From the NCBI RefSeq assembly GCF_006496635.1, contig NZ_CP022958.1, positions 2,342,700 through 2,366,699 of the forward strand: a stretch of DNA of 24,000 nt, read 5' to 3'. Numbering within the stretch: position 1 is the stretch's first letter; each line of letters begins with the position of its first letter. Below the pieces are notes generated by a model. The model did not search any database. It was not told the DNA's origin and saw only the letters and a list, made by a program, of their open reading frames with translations. Positions 11,239 to 19,429 of this stretch are shown piece after piece. This stretch comes from Azoarcus sp. DD4 (lineage in GTDB: Bacteria > Pseudomonadota > Gammaproteobacteria > Burkholderiales > Rhodocyclaceae). The position numbers and the translations under genes are program-made.

Positions 11239-12039
11239 ATGGGTATCATGCAAGCGGAAGTGGACCAGCCGGCCCGTCAGGTCGATGGGGGAGCGAGCCG
11301 GCCCTCGGCCCGGGCGGATTTTTCGACGGGTGCTATCGCGCCGATTCGCACAACCGCCCTTGGCGTTATCGGCATCCTCGTGCTGATGATCGCGTACAGA
11401 ATCTACCAGCAGGTCTTCGCCTGGTCTGCGGGGCTGGATTCCACGGACCCCGCGTTCGACACCTATTGGATGGGTTTGCTGCAGTGGCAGCTCCCAGCCA
11501 TTGTTGCGAGTTGGGCGGGCTTGTGGTCGTACCTTTTCGTGACGCGTGACCGACACCTCGACAAGCTGGAGCCACGCGAGGAGCTGAAGCGCTATTTCAG
11601 ACTGATCGGTTTCATCTTCCTTTACGCCTTCGCGGTCTATTGGGCGGCGAGCTTCTTTGCAGAGCAGGATGCGGCCTGGCATCAGACGGTGGTGCGCGAT
11701 ACGAGTTTTACACCGAGTCACATCGTGCTCTTCTATGGGACGATGCCGTTCTACGTGCTCTTCGGTGTCGGTTCGCTCCTGTATGCGATGACCCGGCTGC
11801 CGAGATTTGCTGAGCAGCTCTCGATTCCCTTCGTGCTGGCGGTCGCGGGCCCCTTCATGATCCTCCCGAATCTCGGATACAACGAGTGGGGTCACGCTTT
11901 CTGGATGATGGAGGAGTTCTTCTCGGCGCCGTTGCACTGGGGTTTCGTGGTCCTCGGGTGGAGCGTGCTTGCTCTCGGCGGCCTGCTCGTTCAGATCGTC
12001 CAGCATATGACGGAGCTCTTCCGCCGCTGCGACGCATGA
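11239..12039 (+). CDS. amoC: copper membrane monooxygenase subunit C (AmoC/PmoC family), 266 aa
   Basis: FFAEQDAAWHQTVVRDTSFTPSHIVLFYG, LYAMTRLP, GPFMILPNLGYNEWGHAFWMMEEFFSAPLHWGFVVLGWS. Both ligand triads are present: D144-x3-H148-x12-H161 and N215-x3-H219-x13-H233. AGGAGGA precedes the ATG. Confidence 0.96.
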   Translation: MGIMQAEVDQPARQVDGGASRPSARADFSTGAIAPIRTTALGVIGILVLMIAYRIYQQVFAWSAGLDSTDPAFDTYWMGLLQWQLPAIVASWAGLWSYLFVTRDRHLDKLEPREELKRYFRLIGFIFLYAFAVYWAASFFAEQDAAWHQTVVRDTSFTPSHIVLFYGTMPFYVLFGVGSLLYAMTRLPRFAEQLSIPFVLAVAGPFMILPNLGYNEWGHAFWMMEEFFSAPLHWGFVVLGWSVLALGGLLVQIVQHMTELFRRCDA

Positions 12040-12110: not shown

Positions 12111-12935
12111 ATGACAAACATTGCTGCATCGGAACAAGTGCGGATCTACGGAGTAACATGGTCGAAATGGTCAGCGGCGCTTTCGAGAAGATTTGACATC
12201 ATGGTTGCGGTGATTCTTTTCCTCGCGATCACTTCCGCCTTTCACCTCCATTTCATGCTGCTCGCCGGCGACTGGGATTTCTGGACCGATTGGAAGGACC
12301 GGCAGTACTGGGTGACGCTGACGCCGATCGTGGCGATCACATTTCCAGCGGCGCTGCACTATGTGTTTTGGGAGAAGTTCAGGCTCCCCTTTGGGGCAAC
12401 CTTTGCGATCGTGTGCCTCATCTTCGGCGAATGGATGAACCGATACTTCGGCTTCCATGTGTGGTCGTACTTCCCGTTCAGCGAGATCTGGCCCGCCACG
12501 ATGATTCCGGGCGCCATCGTCTTGGACGTCGTGTTGCTGCTCACGGGCAATTTCTTCCTTACGGCGGTGATCGGCGGAATAGGATTCGCATTGCTGTTCT
12601 ATCCGGCAAACTGGCCAATGCTCGCGGCCTACCACCTGCCGATGGAAGTCATGAACTCGGTGGTTTCGGTGGCCGACTACATCGGCTACACGTTCACACG
12701 GACCGCCACGCCCGAGTATCTCAGATTCATCGAACGCGGAACCCTGCGTACTTTCGGTGGCCACTCGGCTTGGGTCGCTTCGTTCTTCGCTGGATTCGTG
12801 TGCATGCTTATGTATTTCGCTTGGTGGTATCTGGGCATGCTCCTTACCAAGGTCGTCACCGTCCCGAACAAGTTCAAGCAGTTAATGGGGCTGAAGAAGG
12901 ATCCTCGGCCGTCGAGTGAGCAACTCGCCGTCTGA
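12111..12935 (+). CDS. amoA: copper membrane monooxygenase subunit A (AmoA/PmoA family), 274 aa
   Basis: HFMLLAGDWDFWTDWKDRQYWVTLTPIV, FGATFAIVCLIFGEWMNRYFGF, MIPGAIVLDVVLLLTGN, RTATPEYLRFIERGTLRTFGGHS and WWYLG are hallmark AmoA/PmoA blocks. The SD is weak, so the exact start is slightly uncertain. Confidence 0.96.
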   Translation: MTNIAASEQVRIYGVTWSKWSAALSRRFDIMVAVILFLAITSAFHLHFMLLAGDWDFWTDWKDRQYWVTLTPIVAITFPAALHYVFWEKFRLPFGATFAIVCLIFGEWMNRYFGFHVWSYFPFSEIWPATMIPGAIVLDVVLLLTGNFFLTAVIGGIGFALLFYPANWPMLAAYHLPMEVMNSVVSVADYIGYTFTRTATPEYLRFIERGTLRTFGGHSAWVASFFAGFVCMLMYFAWWYLGMLLTKVVTVPNKFKQLMGLKKDPRPSSEQLAV

Positions 12936-12982: not shown

Positions 12983-14239
12983 ATGATTTCGACATTCGGA
13001 AAATGTGTAGTACGGTTGACTTACGCAGTATGGTTCGGAGTACTGCTGTCGCTGTGCGGAAACGCGCTTGCACATGGAGAGCGCAACCAGGAACCCTTCT
13101 TGCGCATGCGCACGGCCCATTTCTATGACTTGCACTGGAGCACGACCAAGACGGAGGTGAATGGCGACATCGTCGTCACTGGCAAGTTCCGTCTGTTCAG
13201 CGACTGGCCAAAGAACCTGCCGGCTCCGGAGCGCTCGTTCCTCGGTAACGGCACGCCGGGTCCGGTTCTCGCACGCACGGAAAGCTGGATTAACGGCGAG
13301 CCGGCGATTCAGTCCGGCCGGCTCGAACTCGACCGCGACTACGAGTTCAAAACCGTGCTCAAGGGGCGCATCCCAGGCAAGCACCACGTGCACCCGATGA
13401 TCAACGTCGAAGGGGCGGGTCCGCTGCTCGGTCCCGGCAGTTGGCTGGAGGTAACGGGTAACGCCGCCGACTTCAAGTTGCCGGCGACGACAATCGACGG
13501 TACTCAAATCGAGAATCTCGAGACGTGGGGCATGGGGACCGTGAAGACCGTCCACATCGGCTGGTACATCGCCGCCCTGGTATTCATGCTGTGGTGGCTG
13601 CGCAAGCCGTTGCTGATGCCGCGTGCGGTTGCTCTGCAAGCCGGTAACGAGGAGGAGCTGGTTACCCGCGGGGACCGTCTCTGGGGTGCGGCTTTCGGCA
13701 TCGCGACCGTGGTCGTCGTGATTTGGGGCGCGAACTGGGCCGAGGCGACCTACCCCCGGACGATCCCGCTCCAAGGAGGCGAGTTCAACGTCGAGCCACT
13801 GCCGATGGACAACCGTACCGTCAGCGTCCGTGTCAGGCGTGCGACGTACGACGTCCCCGGACGTTCCATGAAGCTGAAGCTCGAGCTCACCAACGACGGC
13901 GACAAGCCCGTGTCAATCGGCGAATTCGCAACCGCGGGCCTGCGGTTCATCAACAAATCGGTTCCCGCCGCGGTCGCTGCGATCGATCCGACTTTCCCGA
14001 TGGATCTGGTGCCGCCCAGCGGACTGCAGGTGGCAGACAGCAGGCCGCTCGCACCGGGTGAGACGCGGCTGATCGAGATGGAAGCGACCGATGCAGCTTG
14101 GGAAGCCGAGCGGCTGACCAGCCTGCTGAACGACCCGGACAACCGGGTCGGCGGCCTGCTGTTCCTCTACGACGCTGACGGCGAACGTGTGATCGCCAAT
14201 GTGTCGGGTCCGATCGTGCCAGTGTTCACCAAGTCCTGA
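12983..14239 (+). CDS. amoB: copper membrane monooxygenase subunit B (AmoB/PmoB family), 418 aa
   Basis: The signal peptide ends ...GNALA, and the mature protein starts HGERNQEPFLRMRTAHFYDL. Other blocks are GRIPGKHHVHPMINV, two internal TM helices, ATYDVPGRSMKL, GEFATAGLRFIN and the C-terminal GPIVPVFTKS. The CuB-type ligands H31, H135 and H137 are present. Confidence 0.96.
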   Translation: MISTFGKCVVRLTYAVWFGVLLSLCGNALAHGERNQEPFLRMRTAHFYDLHWSTTKTEVNGDIVVTGKFRLFSDWPKNLPAPERSFLGNGTPGPVLARTESWINGEPAIQSGRLELDRDYEFKTVLKGRIPGKHHVHPMINVEGAGPLLGPGSWLEVTGNAADFKLPATTIDGTQIENLETWGMGTVKTVHIGWYIAALVFMLWWLRKPLLMPRAVALQAGNEEELVTRGDRLWGAAFGIATVVVVIWGANWAEATYPRTIPLQGGEFNVEPLPMDNRTVSVRVRRATYDVPGRSMKLKLELTNDGDKPVSIGEFATAGLRFINKSVPAAVAAIDPTFPMDLVPPSGLQVADSRPLAPGETRLIEMEATDAAWEAERLTSLLNDPDNRVGGLLFLYDADGERVIANVSGPIVPVFTKS

Positions 14240-14262
14240 GCTCCGGGCTCGGATCGTGATGC

Positions 14263-14288
14263 GCGCGGGACCATTCTCGGTCCCGCGC
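14263..14288 (+). terminator. perfect 10-bp GC-rich stem-loop (GCGCGGGACC-attctc-GGTCCCGCGC) just after amoB; possible attenuator or mRNA-stabilising hairpin, no U-tract
   Basis: Read directly from the sequence, 24 nt after the amoB stop and 3 nt before the SD (GGAGAG) of the next ORF. The missing T-run argues against a strong intrinsic terminator. Confidence 0.35.
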
Positions 14289-14301
14289 CACGGAGAGCTT
14301 C

Positions 14302-14916
14302 ATGCATTGTTGGTTTAGATCCAGGCTATTTGCGTTGTTGGCCGTTGGCTTGTGGGGGGGGATCGTCCCCCTTCAGGTCCAGGCTCATGGTGGGCTCAGC
14401 CTGGAGGAAGATAAGTGCAGGCTGACCATCGGCCCGTATTCGATGCACTTCACCGGTTACCAGCCCGAGGCGACCGGGACCAAGGAGTTTTGCGAGGATA
14501 TTCCCGAGACGGGTCACACCGTCGTGGCACTGGACGCCATCGACGAGCAGTTGAGACACCTGCCAATCGAGGTGCGGATCATTCGTGATACCGGTGACGA
14601 GAGCAACATCGACGCTGTGACCGTACTGCATCTGAAGCCCAAAACGTATCCTACGGGGAGCCTCTCCCTTGAGCACGATTTTCCGCAGCCGGGCAGGTTC
14701 GTCGGATTGGTTACCGCGGTTGGGGACAAGGAGACCTACGTCTCCCGGTTTCCCTTCAGTGTCGCCAGCACGTCGGCGGCACTGGCGAAGTACGTCCCGA
14801 TGGTTGGCGTCGTCTTGGCGGGCATCCTGCTCTACCTGTACTCCGGCCAGCGGCGCGGCAGGGAAGCGAGAAAGACGCGCGGTGTAGGCCCGAAGGCAGG
14901 CGGTTCGACCTCGTGA
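14302..14916 (+). CDS. exported single-pass membrane protein in the position, and with the architecture, of PmoD/AmoD/AmoE (signal peptide, about 130-aa periplasmic domain, C-terminal TM helix), 204 aa
   Basis: The signal peptide ends ...LQVQA, and the mature N-terminus is HGG. The Cys/Met/His cluster C39-RLTIGPYS-M48-H49 is followed by FC64EDIPETGH72. The C-terminal TM is YVPMVGVVLAGILLYLY, followed by a basic tail. SD GGAGAG precedes the ATG. The family assignment rests on position and architecture, not on an alignment. Confidence 0.55.
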   Translation: MHCWFRSRLFALLAVGLWGGIVPLQVQAHGGLSLEEDKCRLTIGPYSMHFTGYQPEATGTKEFCEDIPETGHTVVALDAIDEQLRHLPIEVRIIRDTGDESNIDAVTVLHLKPKTYPTGSLSLEHDFPQPGRFVGLVTAVGDKETYVSRFPFSVASTSAALAKYVPMVGVVLAGILLYLYSGQRRGREARKTRGVGPKAGGSTS

Positions 14917-15863
14917 AACGACAATCGAAGCGACTGAATTCGGGAGTCGCGGGGCTGTCGATCGATGGGGCATTCAAGCGAAAGTTCGCCTGGTCGCTCT
15001 GTTCTGTGCTGATTGTCATCGGACTCGGAGCGTGCTCGGGGGCATCAGATGCCGAGATTGCCGCGACACAGCGGGCCTTTGATTATTCGAAGAGCGAGCG
15101 GGAGGCTATCTGTGCGCCGGGCGACAAGTCCGGGGAGATGTTCAAGAACAATGAGAAATCGGCGGACGGAATCCGCTACAACATTCGAGCGCCGGCGAAT
15201 TACGATCCGACGGTCGGACATCCGCTACTGGTCGTGTATGCCGCAGGCGGCTCGAGCGCGGAAAGAACCGAGGCGCTGACGGGCTTCACGCCGGTGGCGA
15301 CAAAGAGGGGATACATCGTGGTTTATCCGGACCACCGTCCCATGTCGGTCGCCACGATTCACCGACTGGCGAGGATTCCAAGCGAAGTCGCGGACCATTG
15401 GTGTGTCGACCGAACGAAGATCTATGCAAGCGGGCACTCTGACGGCGGCACTGTGGCGACCGCGGTTGCGCTATTGGCCGAAACGAAAGGGACGTTGGCT
15501 GCGATCGCCCCCAGTGCCGCGGGCTTTTCCGCAGCAGATCTAGATGGCTTCGAGTGCCCTTCGCCCACGCCGGTAATGGTGATGCATGGCAGCGGGGACT
15601 TGGTCTTTCCCGGCTGGGGAGCGGCGGCTGCCAAGTGGTGGGGTAAGTGTAACCGATGTGACATATCCGTTGGAGCCGAGGAGGTGGGTAGCGGATGCGT
15701 TGAATTCAAGGGCTGCGCGGCGGGCGGCCAGACTCGGTTTTGCAGTTGGGAAGGATCCCATAGACAGTGGCCTGGAATGGAAGGGGAGGTGGTCAATTTT
15801 TTCGATGCTCGTTGGGGCGCCGCGATGAGTTCTTCTGCTCCGGTTCCGGCGCTTGTGAAGTAG
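14913..15863 (+). CDS. lipoprotein alpha/beta-hydrolase, PHB-depolymerase/LpqC-type esterase family, 316 aa
   Basis: The GTG start overlaps the upstream stop (GTGA at 14913-14916). Lipobox is VIGLGAC-SG. Family layout: IRYNIRAPANYDPTVGHPLLVVYAAGG, RGYIVVYPDH, nucleophile elbow YASGHSDGG, PVMVMHGSGDLVFP and a Cys-rich C-terminal part (WWGKCNRC). Confidence 0.75.
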   Translation: MKRQSKRLNSGVAGLSIDGAFKRKFAWSLCSVLIVIGLGACSGASDAEIAATQRAFDYSKSEREAICAPGDKSGEMFKNNEKSADGIRYNIRAPANYDPTVGHPLLVVYAAGGSSAERTEALTGFTPVATKRGYIVVYPDHRPMSVATIHRLARIPSEVADHWCVDRTKIYASGHSDGGTVATAVALLAETKGTLAAIAPSAAGFSAADLDGFECPSPTPVMVMHGSGDLVFPGWGAAAAKWWGKCNRCDISVGAEEVGSGCVEFKGCAAGGQTRFCSWEGSHRQWPGMEGEVVNFFDARWGAAMSSSAPVPALVK

Positions 15864-15945: not shown

Positions 15946-16269
15946 ATGAGTGGAGCGAAGCTGATTGTGATCTATCCGATGCCGACGGATGTTGCGGCGT
16001 TCGAAGAGGTGTATCGCGACGAACACGTGCCGATGGCGATGGAAAAGCTCAAGGGAGCAACCAAGATCGTAGCCTCGAGAGTAGTCGGGGCGCCTGACGG
16101 AAACCCGGCCTTTCACAGAATTGCGGAGGTGCATTTCCCTTCTATGGTCGCGTTGGGAGAGTGTGCGGCCTCCGAAGGGGGGCAGCAGACCATCGACCAC
16201 GCGAGGCGGATCTCGTCCGGTGGCGCTCCCCTCTTCCTGGTCGCGGAGGAAGCAACGGTCGTTCTTTGA
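15946..16269 (+). CDS. EthD-family protein (TIGR02118-like small dimeric alpha/beta-barrel protein), 107 aa
   Basis: AKLIVIYPMPTDVAAFEEVYRDEHVPMAMEKLKGATKIVASRVVGAPDGNPAFHRIAEVHFPSMVALGECAASEGGQ... follows the EthD/TIGR02118 pattern as I remember it (K.v.lY..P.D...Fd.yY...H.pl......g.......y.....l.F.s.eal...l.s.eg). Confidence 0.8.
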   Translation: MSGAKLIVIYPMPTDVAAFEEVYRDEHVPMAMEKLKGATKIVASRVVGAPDGNPAFHRIAEVHFPSMVALGECAASEGGQQTIDHARRISSGGAPLFLVAEEATVVL

Positions 16270-16456
16270 GGGGGGCGCGGGGGGCCGCTGTGCTGTGTGC
16301 GTGCCGTTCCCGTGTGGCTACCGGTACGCACTCGTGGCATCGGGTTGGGGCCCCACGTTATTGCTGAGAGGCGGCGGCGTTCGGCCTGGAAGGCGCCGCG
16401 CCGTAGAGACGGCCCTGGAATTTTTCACGTTCCGGGGGCATGAGGAGGACGAAAAG

Positions 16457-16861
16457 ATGCCGAAGCTGGCTGGGTGGATCGCTCGCAGGGGAATCGCGTT
16501 CGGTTTGGCCGTGTTCTGTGCGGGGATGCTGCCGCTCGACGCCAGCGCCCACGCCCGCCTGGTGAAAGCGGAGCCGGCGCGGCGGGCGGAGCTGTCGGAA
16601 GCGCCGGGCATGATCAGAGTGTGGTTCAACGAGGAACTCGAGGCCGCATATGCCAAGCTCGTGGTCGAAGAGGCGTCAGGGCGGGCGGTGACCGAGTCGA
16701 AGCCGCAATTGGCCCCCGACGACGCGAAGTCCCTGATCCTTCCGTTGCCCGCTCTTGGGCCGGGAAAGTACCGCGTGAGATTTCGGGTTCTTTCAGTGGA
16801 CGGCCACGTCGTCGAGTCCGCTTATGACTTCACTGTGAAAGGGGGAGTTTCGACTCGATGA
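16457..16861 (+). CDS. copC: periplasmic copper-binding protein CopC (Cu(II)-site-only type), 134 aa
   Basis: ORF 16121..16861 trimmed to the ATG at 16457, which follows GAGGAGGA. The signal peptide ends ...LDASA, and the mature protein starts HARLVKAEPARRAELSEAPGMIRVWFNEELE. GKYRVRFRVLSVDGHVVES provides the D-x-H motif. There is no Met-rich Cu(I) loop. The stop overlaps the copD start (ATGA). Confidence 0.9.
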   Translation: MPKLAGWIARRGIAFGLAVFCAGMLPLDASAHARLVKAEPARRAELSEAPGMIRVWFNEELEAAYAKLVVEEASGRAVTESKPQLAPDDAKSLILPLPALGPGKYRVRFRVLSVDGHVVESAYDFTVKGGVSTR

Positions 16862-18876
16862 TTGAAGTGGTCGGTGCCGTCGCCCACTGGATACAGCTGG
16901 CAGCCAACATGGTGCTGGTTGGCAGCAGCTTCTTCCTCGGTTTCATAGGATATGACAACGAGAGGTGCACGAATCCTTGGCTGGGGCGGCTTGAGCGCGT
17001 TCTTCCGTGTCTCGGGGCTGTGGTCCTGCTTGGTCTGATCGGTGTCGTCTCGACCTCCACGGCGCGCATCACGGCCGACGTGACAGCCGCCTGGCAGCCG
17101 GACGCCTGGATCGGTGTGATGCGCGATACCCGGGTGGGGCAGGTGTGGGCAATCAGAGGGGGGCTGGCGCTGGTGGTGATGGTGGCCGCGGTTTATGTCC
17201 GGCGGGCACGGGCAAGGTCATGGAATTACTTCGCTTGTGGAGGATTGGCGGGCGTCGCGCTAGCTTTCAGTTCGTTCGCGGGCCATGCCGCAGCCGATGA
17301 CTCACCGTGGTTGACGATCCCCCCTCACACACTGCACCTCCTTGCGGCGAGTCTCTGGTTCGGTAGCTTGCCGGCGTTTCTCGCGTCTGCGTCGGGGGGC
17401 GCCGGTGCCGCGGAGGCGGAGAAGTGCTTTTCCATTCGCGCGCTCAACCGCTTTTCCATGGTCGCGTTGCCGATCATGATCGTCGTCGTCGTCAGCGGCA
17501 TTGTCGTTGCCTACTATCAGGTCGCGCCCGCCTTCGGAGGGCTGGTAGCGACGAGGTACGGATGGCTTCTCCATGGAAAGCTCGCCTTGCTGATCGCTAT
17601 TCTCGCCATTGCAGCGCGAGCTCGATTTCGATGGCTACCTGGGCTCTCCGGCAATTGCGAAATCGAGGAGGCGCAATGTGCGCGACGCCTGCGCACCTGG
17701 GTAGGCGTTGAAGTCGGGTGCGCGACCCTTCTGCTACTTGTCGCGAGCGTGCTGGCGGCCACGGTGCCGGCCAAGCACGAGGGCATCGACGCATGGCCGT
17801 ATCCTTTTCGTTTCTCCATCGCCGCCACCTGGGACGAGCCGGGTACGCGGACCCTCGTGCTCGTCGGCGGCGCGTTGCTGATCGCCGGTGGAGTGGCTGC
17901 GCTGGTCGGGCGGCGCCAGCGGTGGAGGCGTTCAGCCGTTGTCGGCGCCGCCGTCGCCTTCGTACTGCCCGGGACAGCATTGCCGCTCTACGCGATCGCA
18001 ACCCCGGCCAGCGAGTATACCTACCGGCCCAGCACGGTTCCTTTCGACGCCATCTCGATTTCGCGGGGCAGCGCGCTGTTCGAAGCCAATTGTGAGCAAT
18101 GTCATGGCCCCCAAGGCATGGGGAATGGGCCACTGGCGAAATCGCTGCGCAAGCCGCCAATCGATCTTCTTACCGAACCGCATACCGCCAGGCACACTGC
18201 CGGAGATTTCTTCAACTGGATCACCACCGGCTTTCCCGACAGCGGAATGCCGGCATTCGGCGATCGGTTTTCGGAGGACGATCGGTGGGACCTGGTGAAT
18301 TTCATCCACGCGCTGTCGCGCGGCTACCAGAGCCGCCCCCTAGGTGCCGCCGTCATTCCGGACAAGCCTGCAGCGACGCTCGGCGCTCCCGATTTTTCGT
18401 TCGTGAGCTACAAGGGCGAACAAGGAACGCTGAAGGATCACCGCGAGCGCGAGGCTGTCCTGCTGGTGTTTTTCTCCTGGCCGGAATCCAAGGACCGGCT
18501 GGACCAATTGGCCGCCACATACCGGTCGATCCGGGCACGAAGTGCTCAAGTCATCGCTGTTCCGTGGAAGGGCGCGGCCTCTGCCGTTGATCAATTGGCC
18601 GGTTATCCATACCCGATTGTGGCCGATGGCGCGCGGGGAATCGGGCGAACCTACGAGGCGTTCAGGCGAACTCTATCGGACCCGGACCTGTTCGGCAGGG
18701 GCAAGCGACCCGGTCATATGGAACTTCTCGTCGACCGCTTCGGTTACCTGCGTGCGCGCTGGATTCCGGATCAAGACGTTCGAGGTTGGAGAGACGGAGC
18801 GATGCTGGCTGAACAACTGGAACGCTTGCGCGCGGAAAGACAGATCCTGCCGCCGGCGGAGGAACACGTCCACTAG
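16858..18876 (+). CDS. copD: CopD-family inner-membrane copper transporter fused to a mono-haem c-type cytochrome domain and a C-terminal Cys-less thioredoxin/AhpC-TSA-fold domain, 672 aa
   Basis: The N-terminal 300 aa or so are polytopic and CopD-like, and translationally coupled to copC. Further TM helices follow. Then comes FEANCEQCHGPQGMGNGPLA (CxxCH, aa 412-416, nt 18091-18105) with downstream SGMPAFG and DRWDLVNFIHAL, typical of class I cytochrome c. The last 170 aa or so resemble redoxins (FSFVSYKGEQGTLKDHREREAVLLVFFSWPESKD...VIAV...YPIVAD...YEAF) but contain no cysteine. Confidence 0.85.
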   Translation: MIEVVGAVAHWIQLAANMVLVGSSFFLGFIGYDNERCTNPWLGRLERVLPCLGAVVLLGLIGVVSTSTARITADVTAAWQPDAWIGVMRDTRVGQVWAIRGGLALVVMVAAVYVRRARARSWNYFACGGLAGVALAFSSFAGHAAADDSPWLTIPPHTLHLLAASLWFGSLPAFLASASGGAGAAEAEKCFSIRALNRFSMVALPIMIVVVVSGIVVAYYQVAPAFGGLVATRYGWLLHGKLALLIAILAIAARARFRWLPGLSGNCEIEEAQCARRLRTWVGVEVGCATLLLLVASVLAATVPAKHEGIDAWPYPFRFSIAATWDEPGTRTLVLVGGALLIAGGVAALVGRRQRWRRSAVVGAAVAFVLPGTALPLYAIATPASEYTYRPSTVPFDAISISRGSALFEANCEQCHGPQGMGNGPLAKSLRKPPIDLLTEPHTARHTAGDFFNWITTGFPDSGMPAFGDRFSEDDRWDLVNFIHALSRGYQSRPLGAAVIPDKPAATLGAPDFSFVSYKGEQGTLKDHREREAVLLVFFSWPESKDRLDQLAATYRSIRARSAQVIAVPWKGAASAVDQLAGYPYPIVADGARGIGRTYEAFRRTLSDPDLFGRGKRPGHMELLVDRFGYLRARWIPDQDVRGWRDGAMLAEQLERLRAERQILPPAEEHVH

Positions 18877-18955
18877 GACACTTGGACGCAACCTGAGGAG
18901 CTCAAGCCTCTGCTCTGTAAACAGAGGCTACCTATCAAATGGGAGGATGGTAATC

Positions 18956-19429
18956 ATGAAGAGACTTTCCCTTGTCGCACTGCTTGCAGCGGTGCTTGCC
19001 GCATCCGTACCGGCGGCTGCGCATACCGATGAGTATCTAGAGGCGGTGAAGGCGCCTCACGGCGGGCGGTTGCGGATGTCGGGCCCATATCACCTTGAAC
19101 TGGTGGTTAAGGACCGCGACATCCTCGTGTATGTCACGGATCATGGCGACAAGGAGATCGCTACGGCGGGAGGTGAGGGCAAGGTCGTCTTGCAGCGTGG
19201 ATCGAGCAGGGTGTCCGTGCGGCTGGAGCCGTCAGGAGGCAACGTCCTGAGAGGGAAGAGCGAATCTGGGATTACTCCGAGCACGAGCGCGGTTGTCTTT
19301 GTGAAGCTGCCTGGGCAGGACGCCTACTCGGCGCGCTATCCTGCACCAAAGCCTGTAGATCCCCAGCCGGCCGCGCATCGCGGAGGGGCTGCCAGCCAGC
19401 ACGACGGGCATCACATGATGCATCACTAG
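18956..19429 (+). CDS. small secreted His/Met-rich protein, putative periplasmic metal (copper) binding, 157 aa
   Basis: ORF 18542..19429 trimmed to the ATG at 18956, which follows GGGAGGA. The signal peptide MKRLSLVALLAAVLAASVPAAA is followed by the mature N-terminus HTDEY. Other features are HGGRLRMSGPYHLELVVKDRDILVYVTDHGDKE and the C-terminus QHDGHHMMHH. I cannot name a family. Confidence 0.7.
   Translation: MKRLSLVALLAAVLAASVPAAAHTDEYLEAVKAPHGGRLRMSGPYHLELVVKDRDILVYVTDHGDKEIATAGGEGKVVLQRGSSRVSVRLEPSGGNVLRGKSESGITPSTSAVVFVKLPGQDAYSARYPAPKPVDPQPAAHRGGAASQHDGHHMMHH

Follow-up and report, generated by a model that had tools for sequence, protein, structure and literature searches.

PmoD and AmoD, encoded beside copper-dependent membrane monooxygenases (CuMMOs), are the closest described relatives of the protein treated here. 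In PmoD of Methylocystis sp. Rockwell (Met49242_1452, PDB 6CPD) a CuA centre is formed by Cys41, Met49 and His51, with Cys41 as the bridging thiolate; Cys65 is not a CuA ligand, and in the crystal a disulfide links it to Cys41 (Fisher et al., PMC6189053). Motif classes in that study include Cx7MxHxnC (in-operon alpha-methanotroph PmoD and AmoE), which forms CuA, the Cx9H, Cx8M and CxnC classes, which bind copper and form no CuA, and the operon-associated Cx8MHxnC class, to which AmoD belongs and which makes up 13.4% of the family (PMC6189053). Every PmoD class tested binds copper, a pmoD knock-out has a copper-dependent growth defect, and no protein family existed for PmoD when the study was published (PMC6189053). 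In Nitrosomonas europaea, AmoD keeps no more than two of the three CuA ligands and a CuA site was modelled in AmoE alone (Musiani et al.); AmoD itself is described as barely studied in a 2026 review. The gene considered here, amoD, was found in a 24,000-nt stretch of the Azoarcus sp. DD4 genome (contig NZ_CP022958.1, positions 2,342,700 to 2,366,699, forward strand), which is called the window below.

The window protein is an orthodox AmoD (orf5-type) of the published motif class, and its novelty is low. With high confidence, it is regarded as a copper-handling accessory of the adjacent CuMMO that would act together with CopC and CopD through a mononuclear, non-CuA site.

Family assignment and gene model

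The amoD frame runs from an ATG at 14302 to a TGA at 14914–14916 and encodes 204 aa. It has 974 database homologues with E ≤ 1e-3, the top ones 53–66% identical, and the + strand was therefore taken as the coding strand; an antisense open reading frame (ORF) of 215 aa (14326–14973) was discarded as a high-GC artefact. In a BLASTP comparison the amoD ORF matched the PmoD sequence of 6CPD with 40% identity over 128 columns (E 1e-27), and a profile built from 20 homologues and searched against all PDB sequences returned a single match, PmoD 6CPD (E 1.8e-30). Scans of the ORF against Pfam-A and NCBIfam gave no match. The 6CPD sequence, Nitrosovibrio AmoD and Nitrosovibrio AmoE, scanned as controls, likewise gave none, so the missing match is a property of these libraries; because they hold no PmoD/AmoD model, amoD and about a thousand similar genes are labelled "hypothetical".

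The structure was predicted with AlphaFold2 from a 79-sequence alignment (mean pLDDT, the predicted local distance difference test score, 88; at least 86 in the blocks covering residues 41–150), and the model consisted of a helix at 3–20, beta strands within 33–154 and a helix at 158–193. Foldseek against the PDB placed 6cpd_B at the top (E 1.4e-13, TMt 0.85, root-mean-square deviation (rmsd) 1.9 Å, 37% identity), the two chains 6cpd_B and 6cpd_A matching at E ~1e-13, TM-score 0.82–0.85, rmsd 1.9–2.2 Å and 37–38% identity. All other matches had E ≥ 2e-4, the best being nine orders of magnitude weaker. A resemblance to lytic polysaccharide monooxygenases (LPMOs) of family AA10 at Foldseek ranks 9–15 (TM-score ~0.3, rmsd >6 Å) was rejected as that of a generic beta-sandwich and carries no evidence of a histidine brace.

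Subclass was assigned from sequence identity, phylogeny and motif. The mature periplasmic domain was 62–70% identical to every AmoD examined (among them those of Nitrosospira, Nitrosovibrio, Nitrosomonas, Nitrosomonadaceae and comammox Nitrospira), and in the trimmed tree alignment the highest identity was 72%, to Nitrosospira sp. 56-18. The maximum-likelihood tree separated an AmoD clade (40 rows) from an AmoE clade (14 rows), each with 100/100 support; the window protein fell in the AmoD clade, inside which its placement was unresolved. AmoE (orf4) of beta-proteobacterial nitrifiers and comammox bacteria shares the superfamily, the architecture and the predicted A/HG mature N-terminus with the window protein, and differs from it in sequence (only 28–39% identity), in its separate clade and in its Cx7MxH motif (Cx9H in clade B comammox); no AmoE is encoded in the window. 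The sequence, fold and context features that mark the PmoD/AmoD family were found: similarity to the PmoD periplasmic domain, the predicted cupredoxin-like fold, a predicted signal peptide, periplasmic domain and transmembrane helix within 150–250 aa, the two cysteines and CuMMO context. Both features of the AmoD subclass were found as well, namely C-x8-M-H-xn-C with an upstream H1 and grouping with nitrifier AmoD.

An earlier sequence-only reading of the window had named a PmoD/AmoD-type protein in the PmoD position, and BLASTP, profile, fold and synteny agree with it. Its suggestion that the protein may be divergent, a distant PmoD relative or a non-homologous analogue did not hold, given 40% identity at E 1e-27 and a TM-score of 0.85 to PmoD, and 62–70% identity to AmoD. 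Of the checks which that reading had proposed, the Foldseek search with a predicted structure returned PmoD 6cpd first, and the profile search, for which Pfam and NCBIfam contain no PmoD/AmoD model, recovered PmoD once a profile made for this work was run against the PDB.

The architecture proposed in the same reading (signal peptide, periplasmic domain of about 130 aa, one C-terminal transmembrane helix) is upheld by sequence features and the AlphaFold2 model together. The signal peptide carries R6/R8 and the hydrophobic core LFALLAVGLWGGIVPL, and its predicted cleavage site, VQA/H29GG, would give the mature N-terminus H29-G-G that had been proposed. The A-x-A/H-G junction was common among superfamily representatives (A28 in 111/127, H29 in 115/127, G30 in 123/128). 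The hydrophobic segment at about 164–182 and the basic tail that follows it are consistent with a C-terminal anchor whose end lies in the cytoplasm.

In the annotation of the genome itself (P0001, 14443–14916) the protein is given 157 aa beginning at Met48, by which the signal peptide, His29 and Cys39 are lost. This start was rejected: homologues align upstream of it through A/HGG...C, and the ATG at 14302 has a GGAGAG Shine-Dalgarno sequence. The amoD start in the genome's own annotation is mis-called.

Ligand motif and proposed copper site

The motif of the window protein is H29...C39-x8-M48-H49-x14-C64, with Ser47 at C+8, and its class is identical to that of NE0941/NE2060 and Noc_2500 (Supplementary Data 2, PMC6189053). 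The residues H29, G30, D37, C39, G44, H49, F50, P55, F63, C64, D66 and P68 were invariant in 79 close homologues, and M48 was at least 90% conserved in them. An exhaustive profile search yielded 797 cluster representatives, and superfamily conservation was counted in the best 150 of them: C1 (C39) was present in 139/139, C2 (C64) in 146/147, H1 (H29) in 115/127, H2 (H49) in 110/147 and Met at C+9 in 96/147, so the predicted mature N-terminal His outranks both H2 and the Met. The position of H29 is tracked in the metadata column "H1" of Fisher et al., where it is not discussed (PMC6189053). Among the ligands listed in the sequence-only reading, H72, which is R, P, E, K or Q across superfamily representatives, was discarded as not conserved.

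Compared with Methylocystis PmoD, the window protein has a homologous fold (TM-score 0.85), 37–40% identity, and a shared signal peptide and C-terminal anchor, with C39, H49 and C64 equivalent to Cys41, His51 and Cys65. It differs at the CuA ligand Met49, which is Ser47 in the window protein, and at the crystal copper ligands Met42 and Met44, which are Arg and Thr; PmoD also has no N-terminal His, reading EGG where the window protein reads HGG, and has a 7-residue insertion after IIRD. When examined for the CuA subclass, therefore, C39 and H49 align with Cys41 and His51 and a Met at C1+8, on which CuA formation depends, is absent. The canonical CuA motif Hx34Cx3Cx3Hx2M of cytochrome c oxidase subunit II and nitrous oxide reductase is absent too, mature AmoD having two cysteines 25 residues apart; PmoD is also without it (PMC6189053). 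Since M48 stands at C+9 and not at C+8, the window protein belongs to the Cx8MHxnC class and not to the CuA-forming Cx7MxHxnC class. As neighbours on the predicted strand 46–53, M48 and H49 should present their side chains to opposite sides. A PmoD-type CuA centre is accordingly considered unlikely in the window protein, given the Met shifted by one residue, the two of three CuA ligands that have equivalents and the modelled strand geometry.

The following function is proposed. AmoD would be exported through its cleavable signal peptide and tethered at the periplasmic face of the inner membrane by the single C-terminal helix, and its predicted cupredoxin-like beta-sandwich would bear a cluster close to the N-terminus made up of H29, D37, C39, H49 and C64 (in EFCEDIP). 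By analogy with its homologues, the protein would bind copper and be needed for a copper-dependent function of the adjacent membrane monooxygenase, and AmoD, CopC and CopD together may load or maintain the metal sites of the CuMMO. The copper-accessory role is put forward because of the copper-dependent defect of the pmoD deletion, the copper binding of the tested classes and the persistent linkage to copC and copD. The site would be mononuclear and non-CuA, since the Met of the window protein is shifted away from the place that the CuA ligand Met takes in PmoD.

Several points weigh against this proposal. The copper tests of Fisher et al. cover the Cx7MxH, Cx8M, Cx9H and CxnC classes and not Cx8MHxnC (PMC6189053), and even PmoD may be either a copper chaperone or an electron carrier. 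AmoD/PmoD was not seen bound in cryo-electron microscopy (cryo-EM) structures of ammonia monooxygenase (AMO) or particulate methane monooxygenase (pMMO), according to the 2026 review. The N-terminal segment was modelled with low confidence (pLDDT 55–73 across residues 21–40), and M48, highly conserved beside H49, may leave room for a variant Cys/Met/His site.

The alternative that survives best places the physiological copper site on the free N-terminal His29. Copper would be held there by the amine and imidazole, with the site completed by H49 and/or the Cys pair. Sites of the histidine-brace type occur in PmoB (CuB), CopC and LPMOs, and the site in AmoD-type proteins, the majority of the superfamily, might be histidine-brace-like or a His/Cys mononuclear one; judged from sequence conservation, this is a tentative alternative that is held to be possible and on balance not expected. 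The A/H-G junction is invariant in the 79 homologues, common to AmoD, AmoE and most paralogues, and present in 115 of 127 diverse representatives, above H2 or the Met. A Glu replaces H1 in the CuA-forming alpha-methanotroph PmoDs (LRA/EGGAG...NMCMVM), the constructs used in published work had a Ser-Met added to them, and the 6CPD chain starts some 3 residues ahead of Cys41. Because alpha-methanotroph PmoD has no such His and the constructs were N-terminally extended, the published biochemistry would miss a His29 site, and none of the papers in the library searched joins "PmoD" and "histidine brace". Set against this, cleavage at A28/H29 is predicted only, the N-terminal arm falls in the low-confidence part of the model, the CuA-forming PmoDs support copper-dependent growth although they have no H1, and the presence of H1 is uncoupled from that of H2 (counts 89/26/8/4, odds ratio ~1.7).

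A homodimeric, mixed-valent CuA centre as in Methylocystis PmoD, with AmoD as an electron-transfer partner of the monooxygenase, is less probable still. The CuA ligands Cys41 and His51 have exact counterparts in C39 and H49 in the alignment, an adjacent Met (M48) is at least 90% conserved, the Cx8MHxnC class is outside the published spectroscopy (PMC6189053), and Met occupies C+8 as well as C+9 in some comammox AmoD1 proteins (YMMHF). These points are outweighed by Ser47 at the Met49 position (C+8), by M48 and H49 being adjacent on a predicted strand where their side chains should diverge, by Leu at C+9 in Nevskiaceae and Panacagrimonas, by the limitation of CuA formation to Cx7MxHxnC proteins (PMC6189053), and by the fact that Musiani et al. 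modelled no CuA in N. europaea AmoD because only two of three ligands are conserved.

It is improbable that the protein serves the CuMMO complex, or its membrane arrays, as a structural or assembly factor without a metal, with the Cys pair forming a structural disulfide only. The Cys41-Cys65 disulfide in the PmoD crystal (PMC6189053) would suit such a role, as would the 62–70% domain identity across CuMMO clades of presumably different substrates, which resembles that of a protein-protein interface; copper binding by all tested PmoD classes (PMC6189053), the conservation of His and of acidic residues near the Cys pair, the persistent gene linkage with copC and copD, and the absence of the protein from AMO and pMMO cryo-EM maps (2026 review) speak against it. 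A non-homologous PmoD analogue or an unrelated family in the same operon position, in favour of which stands the absence of a Pfam or NCBIfam match, is refuted by the direct sequence and fold matches to PmoD, libraries without a PmoD/AmoD model having missed 6CPD, Nitrosovibrio AmoD and Nitrosovibrio AmoE as well.

Operon context and distribution

Coordinates of amoD, its sequence features and the neighbouring genes are collected in Table 1. The amoC, amoA and amoB products matched PF04896, PF02461 and PF04744 at E 1e-96 to 1e-142, and the NCBIfam models AmoC_BACT, AmoA_BACT and AmoB_BACT above cut-off.

Table 1. Position and basis of the features of amoD and of its neighbours in the window.
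Feature	Position	Strand	Basis or remark
amoC	11239–12039	+	Pfam/NCBIfam
amoA	12111–12935	+	Pfam/NCBIfam
amoB	12983–14239	+	Pfam/NCBIfam
Perfect 10-bp GC hairpin, loop 6, without T-tract, in amoB-amoD spacer	14263–14288	+	Sequence
Shine-Dalgarno GGAGAG	14292–14297	+	4 nt 5' of ATG 14302; read from sequence
amoD (orf5-type PmoD/AmoD family gene)	14302–14916	+	ORF list, homologues, PDB profile match, tree
Signal peptide, residues 1–28, predicted cleavage VQA/HGG	14302–14385	+	n, h and c regions; model helix 3–20
Periplasmic cupredoxin-like beta-sandwich (predicted), residues 29–160	14386–14781	+	AlphaFold2 and Foldseek
H29 ("H1" of Fisher et al.), predicted mature residue 1	14386–14388	+	Invariant in 79 close homologues; 91% of 127 representatives
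C39 (C1), equivalent to PmoD Cys41	14416–14418	+	6CPD alignment; 139/139 representatives
M48-H49; H49 = H2 = PmoD His51; M48 at C1+9	14443–14448	+	6CPD alignments
C64 (C2), equivalent to PmoD Cys65, inside most conserved motif EFCEDIP	14491–14493	+	146/147 representatives
C-terminal transmembrane helix (predicted), residues ~164–182	14791–14847	+	Hydrophobic stretch YVPMVGVVLAGILLYLYSG; model helix 158–193
Basic tail QRRGREARKTRG after transmembrane helix, predicted cytoplasmic	14848–14913	+	Sequence
Esterase-like lipoprotein	14913–15863	+	Family matches
EthD-like	15946–16269	+	Family matches
CopC	about 16454–16861	+	Family matches
CopD-cytochrome c-thioredoxin-like fusion	16858–18876	+	Family matches

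Relatives were scanned with one genome per species, the window's own genome being left out, and operon layouts were read from tblastn searches with all window proteins. The scan found 512 relatives; the best 79 loci include nitrifiers (Nitrosospira, Nitrosovibrio, Nitrosomonas), comammox Nitrospira, and heterotrophs or metagenome-assembled genomes (MAGs) of Rhodocyclales, Sterolibacterium, Bradyrhizobium, Nevskiaceae, Polycyclovorans, Acidovorax, Rhodoferax, Hyphomicrobium and Methylibium. Three layouts were seen: amoCAB-amoE-amoD-copC-copD in beta-proteobacterial nitrifiers (amoE 31–39% and amoD 50–63% identical to the window gene, with one partial match of 71%), amoE-amoD1-amoD2-copCD in comammox Nitrospira (amoD1 50–59%), and xmoCAB-amoD-(esterase)-(EthD)-copCD in other hosts (amoD 53–63%). 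The gene order of the window recurs in Rhodocyclales, Alphaproteobacteria and Hyphomicrobium MAGs, amoD-copC-copD recurs in nitrifiers, and xmoCAB-amoD-...-copC-copD synteny was found at dozens of loci.

Nitrifier and comammox AmoD (for example NE0941/NE2060 of N. europaea and Noc_2500 of Nitrosococcus oceani) share with the window protein the architecture, H1 with C-x8-M-H-x14-C, the clade, and the position after amoB and before copCD. The window differs from these loci in that its host is not of a recognised nitrifier lineage, that no amoE paralogue precedes amoD, and that an esterase-like lipoprotein gene and an EthD-like gene lie between amoD and copC. A search with PF13447 for hydroxylamine oxidoreductase was uninformative, giving no match in the window's own genome or in any control genome. 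Such amoD-type genes have already been listed from CuMMO operons of hosts that are neither methanotrophs nor nitrifiers (Solimonas, Bradyrhizobium, "cabdcd" context): the PmoD-family genes of Solimonas aquatica and of Bradyrhizobium sp. ERR11 resemble the window gene in their Cx8MHxnC motif, xmoCAB-D-copC-copD order and heterotrophic host, whereas the CuMMO of the window belongs to another subclade. The window AmoA is only 45–48% identical to that of Bradyrhizobium and Nevskiaceae; identity is 71–81% to AmoA of Rhodocyclales, Alphaproteobacteria, Hyphomicrobium and Baikal-Gammaproteobacteria MAGs, and 42–53% to that of nitrifiers.

Across clades (loci L001 to L071) identity of the AmoD domain was flat at 62–70%, that of AmoA ran from 42 to 81% and that of AmoB from 41 to 74%; compared with the enzyme, AmoD thus shows lower conservation between close relatives and higher conservation between distant ones. 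The flat profile suggests a large invariant core combined with fast-saturating positions. Because the domain holds at 62–70% while the enzyme subunits drift to 41–53%, AmoD probably has a role in copper or electron handling that is independent of the enzyme's substrate.

In the 5.4-Mb genome amoD is single-copy, and a search of 40 related genomes (six of the same genus), made for amoD only, found no AmoD family member. From these two results, amoD probably arrived together with the CuMMO cluster by horizontal acquisition.

The claim that amoD follows amoB immediately is right in that it is the next gene; the two are nevertheless separated by a 62-nt spacer, from the amoB stop at 14239 to the ATG at 14302, that contains a hairpin. 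The RNA fold of 14240–14310 had -37.3 kcal/mol (z -3.0), with an outer stem pairing the amoD Shine-Dalgarno sequence, and an intrinsic-terminator scan made no call between amoB and amoD. Strong hairpins after amoB, some of them with T-tracts, recur in many relatives (L001, L004, which has a T-tract, L017, L036 and L045 among them) and at nitrifier loci. From the pairing of the Shine-Dalgarno sequence and this recurrence, AmoD is probably expressed below AmoCAB, either because transcription terminates in part or because the ribosome site is occluded.

The GTGA overlap reported between amoD and the esterase-like ORF is present in the sequence (GTG at 14913, TGA at 14914–14916), and the GTG is the sole canonical start 5' of the LGAC lipobox of the esterase-like lipoprotein. 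In relatives the amoD-esterase gap is 58–82 nt with no overlap, and the overlap is therefore specific to this genome. The tight co-expression read from it would apply at most to amoD and the esterase gene here, as the strong hairpin separates amoB.

Further observations were made on the neighbouring genes and related loci. The esterase-like lipoprotein is a polyhydroxyalkanoate-depolymerase-like alpha/beta hydrolase with the lipobox LGAC; its gene lies directly 3' of amoD in many non-nitrifier CuMMO clusters (nine loci) and was found in no nitrifier or comammox locus examined. A small His/Met-rich secreted protein encoded 3' of copD (18953–19429), with no Pfam family above threshold, is conserved at 40–53% identity in nitrifier and non-nitrifier clusters (seven loci). 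The Rhodocyclales MAG GCA_016235025 (L004/L007, about 1273–2545) carries two extra AmoD paralogues 5' of amoC, 52% and 44% identical; in one of them 16 residues are inserted between H2 and C2. In comammox AmoD2 (for example L018, 6728–7228; L028, 6755–7282) the N-terminus is shifted and the junction is AQA/QH(G/F)HEL, which puts His at positions 2 and 4 of the mature protein and not at 1, and some comammox AmoD2 paralogues are without H2 (MYF). Two MAGs labelled Klebsiella pneumoniae (L015 and L040) carry a CuMMO-amoD-copDC cluster with AmoA ~72% identical to that of the window; the labels are almost certainly wrong.

Implications for the PmoD/AmoD family

The chief value of these results is in annotation, of about a thousand genes now called "hypothetical" and of the truncated call in the window's own genome. 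Copper monooxygenase operons carry AmoD with them into heterotrophic hosts. The invariant N-terminal His is the one remaining point of interest: if a copper site on His29 were true, the family's ancestral function would lie elsewhere than in the CuA centre, which would be a lineage-specific derivative.

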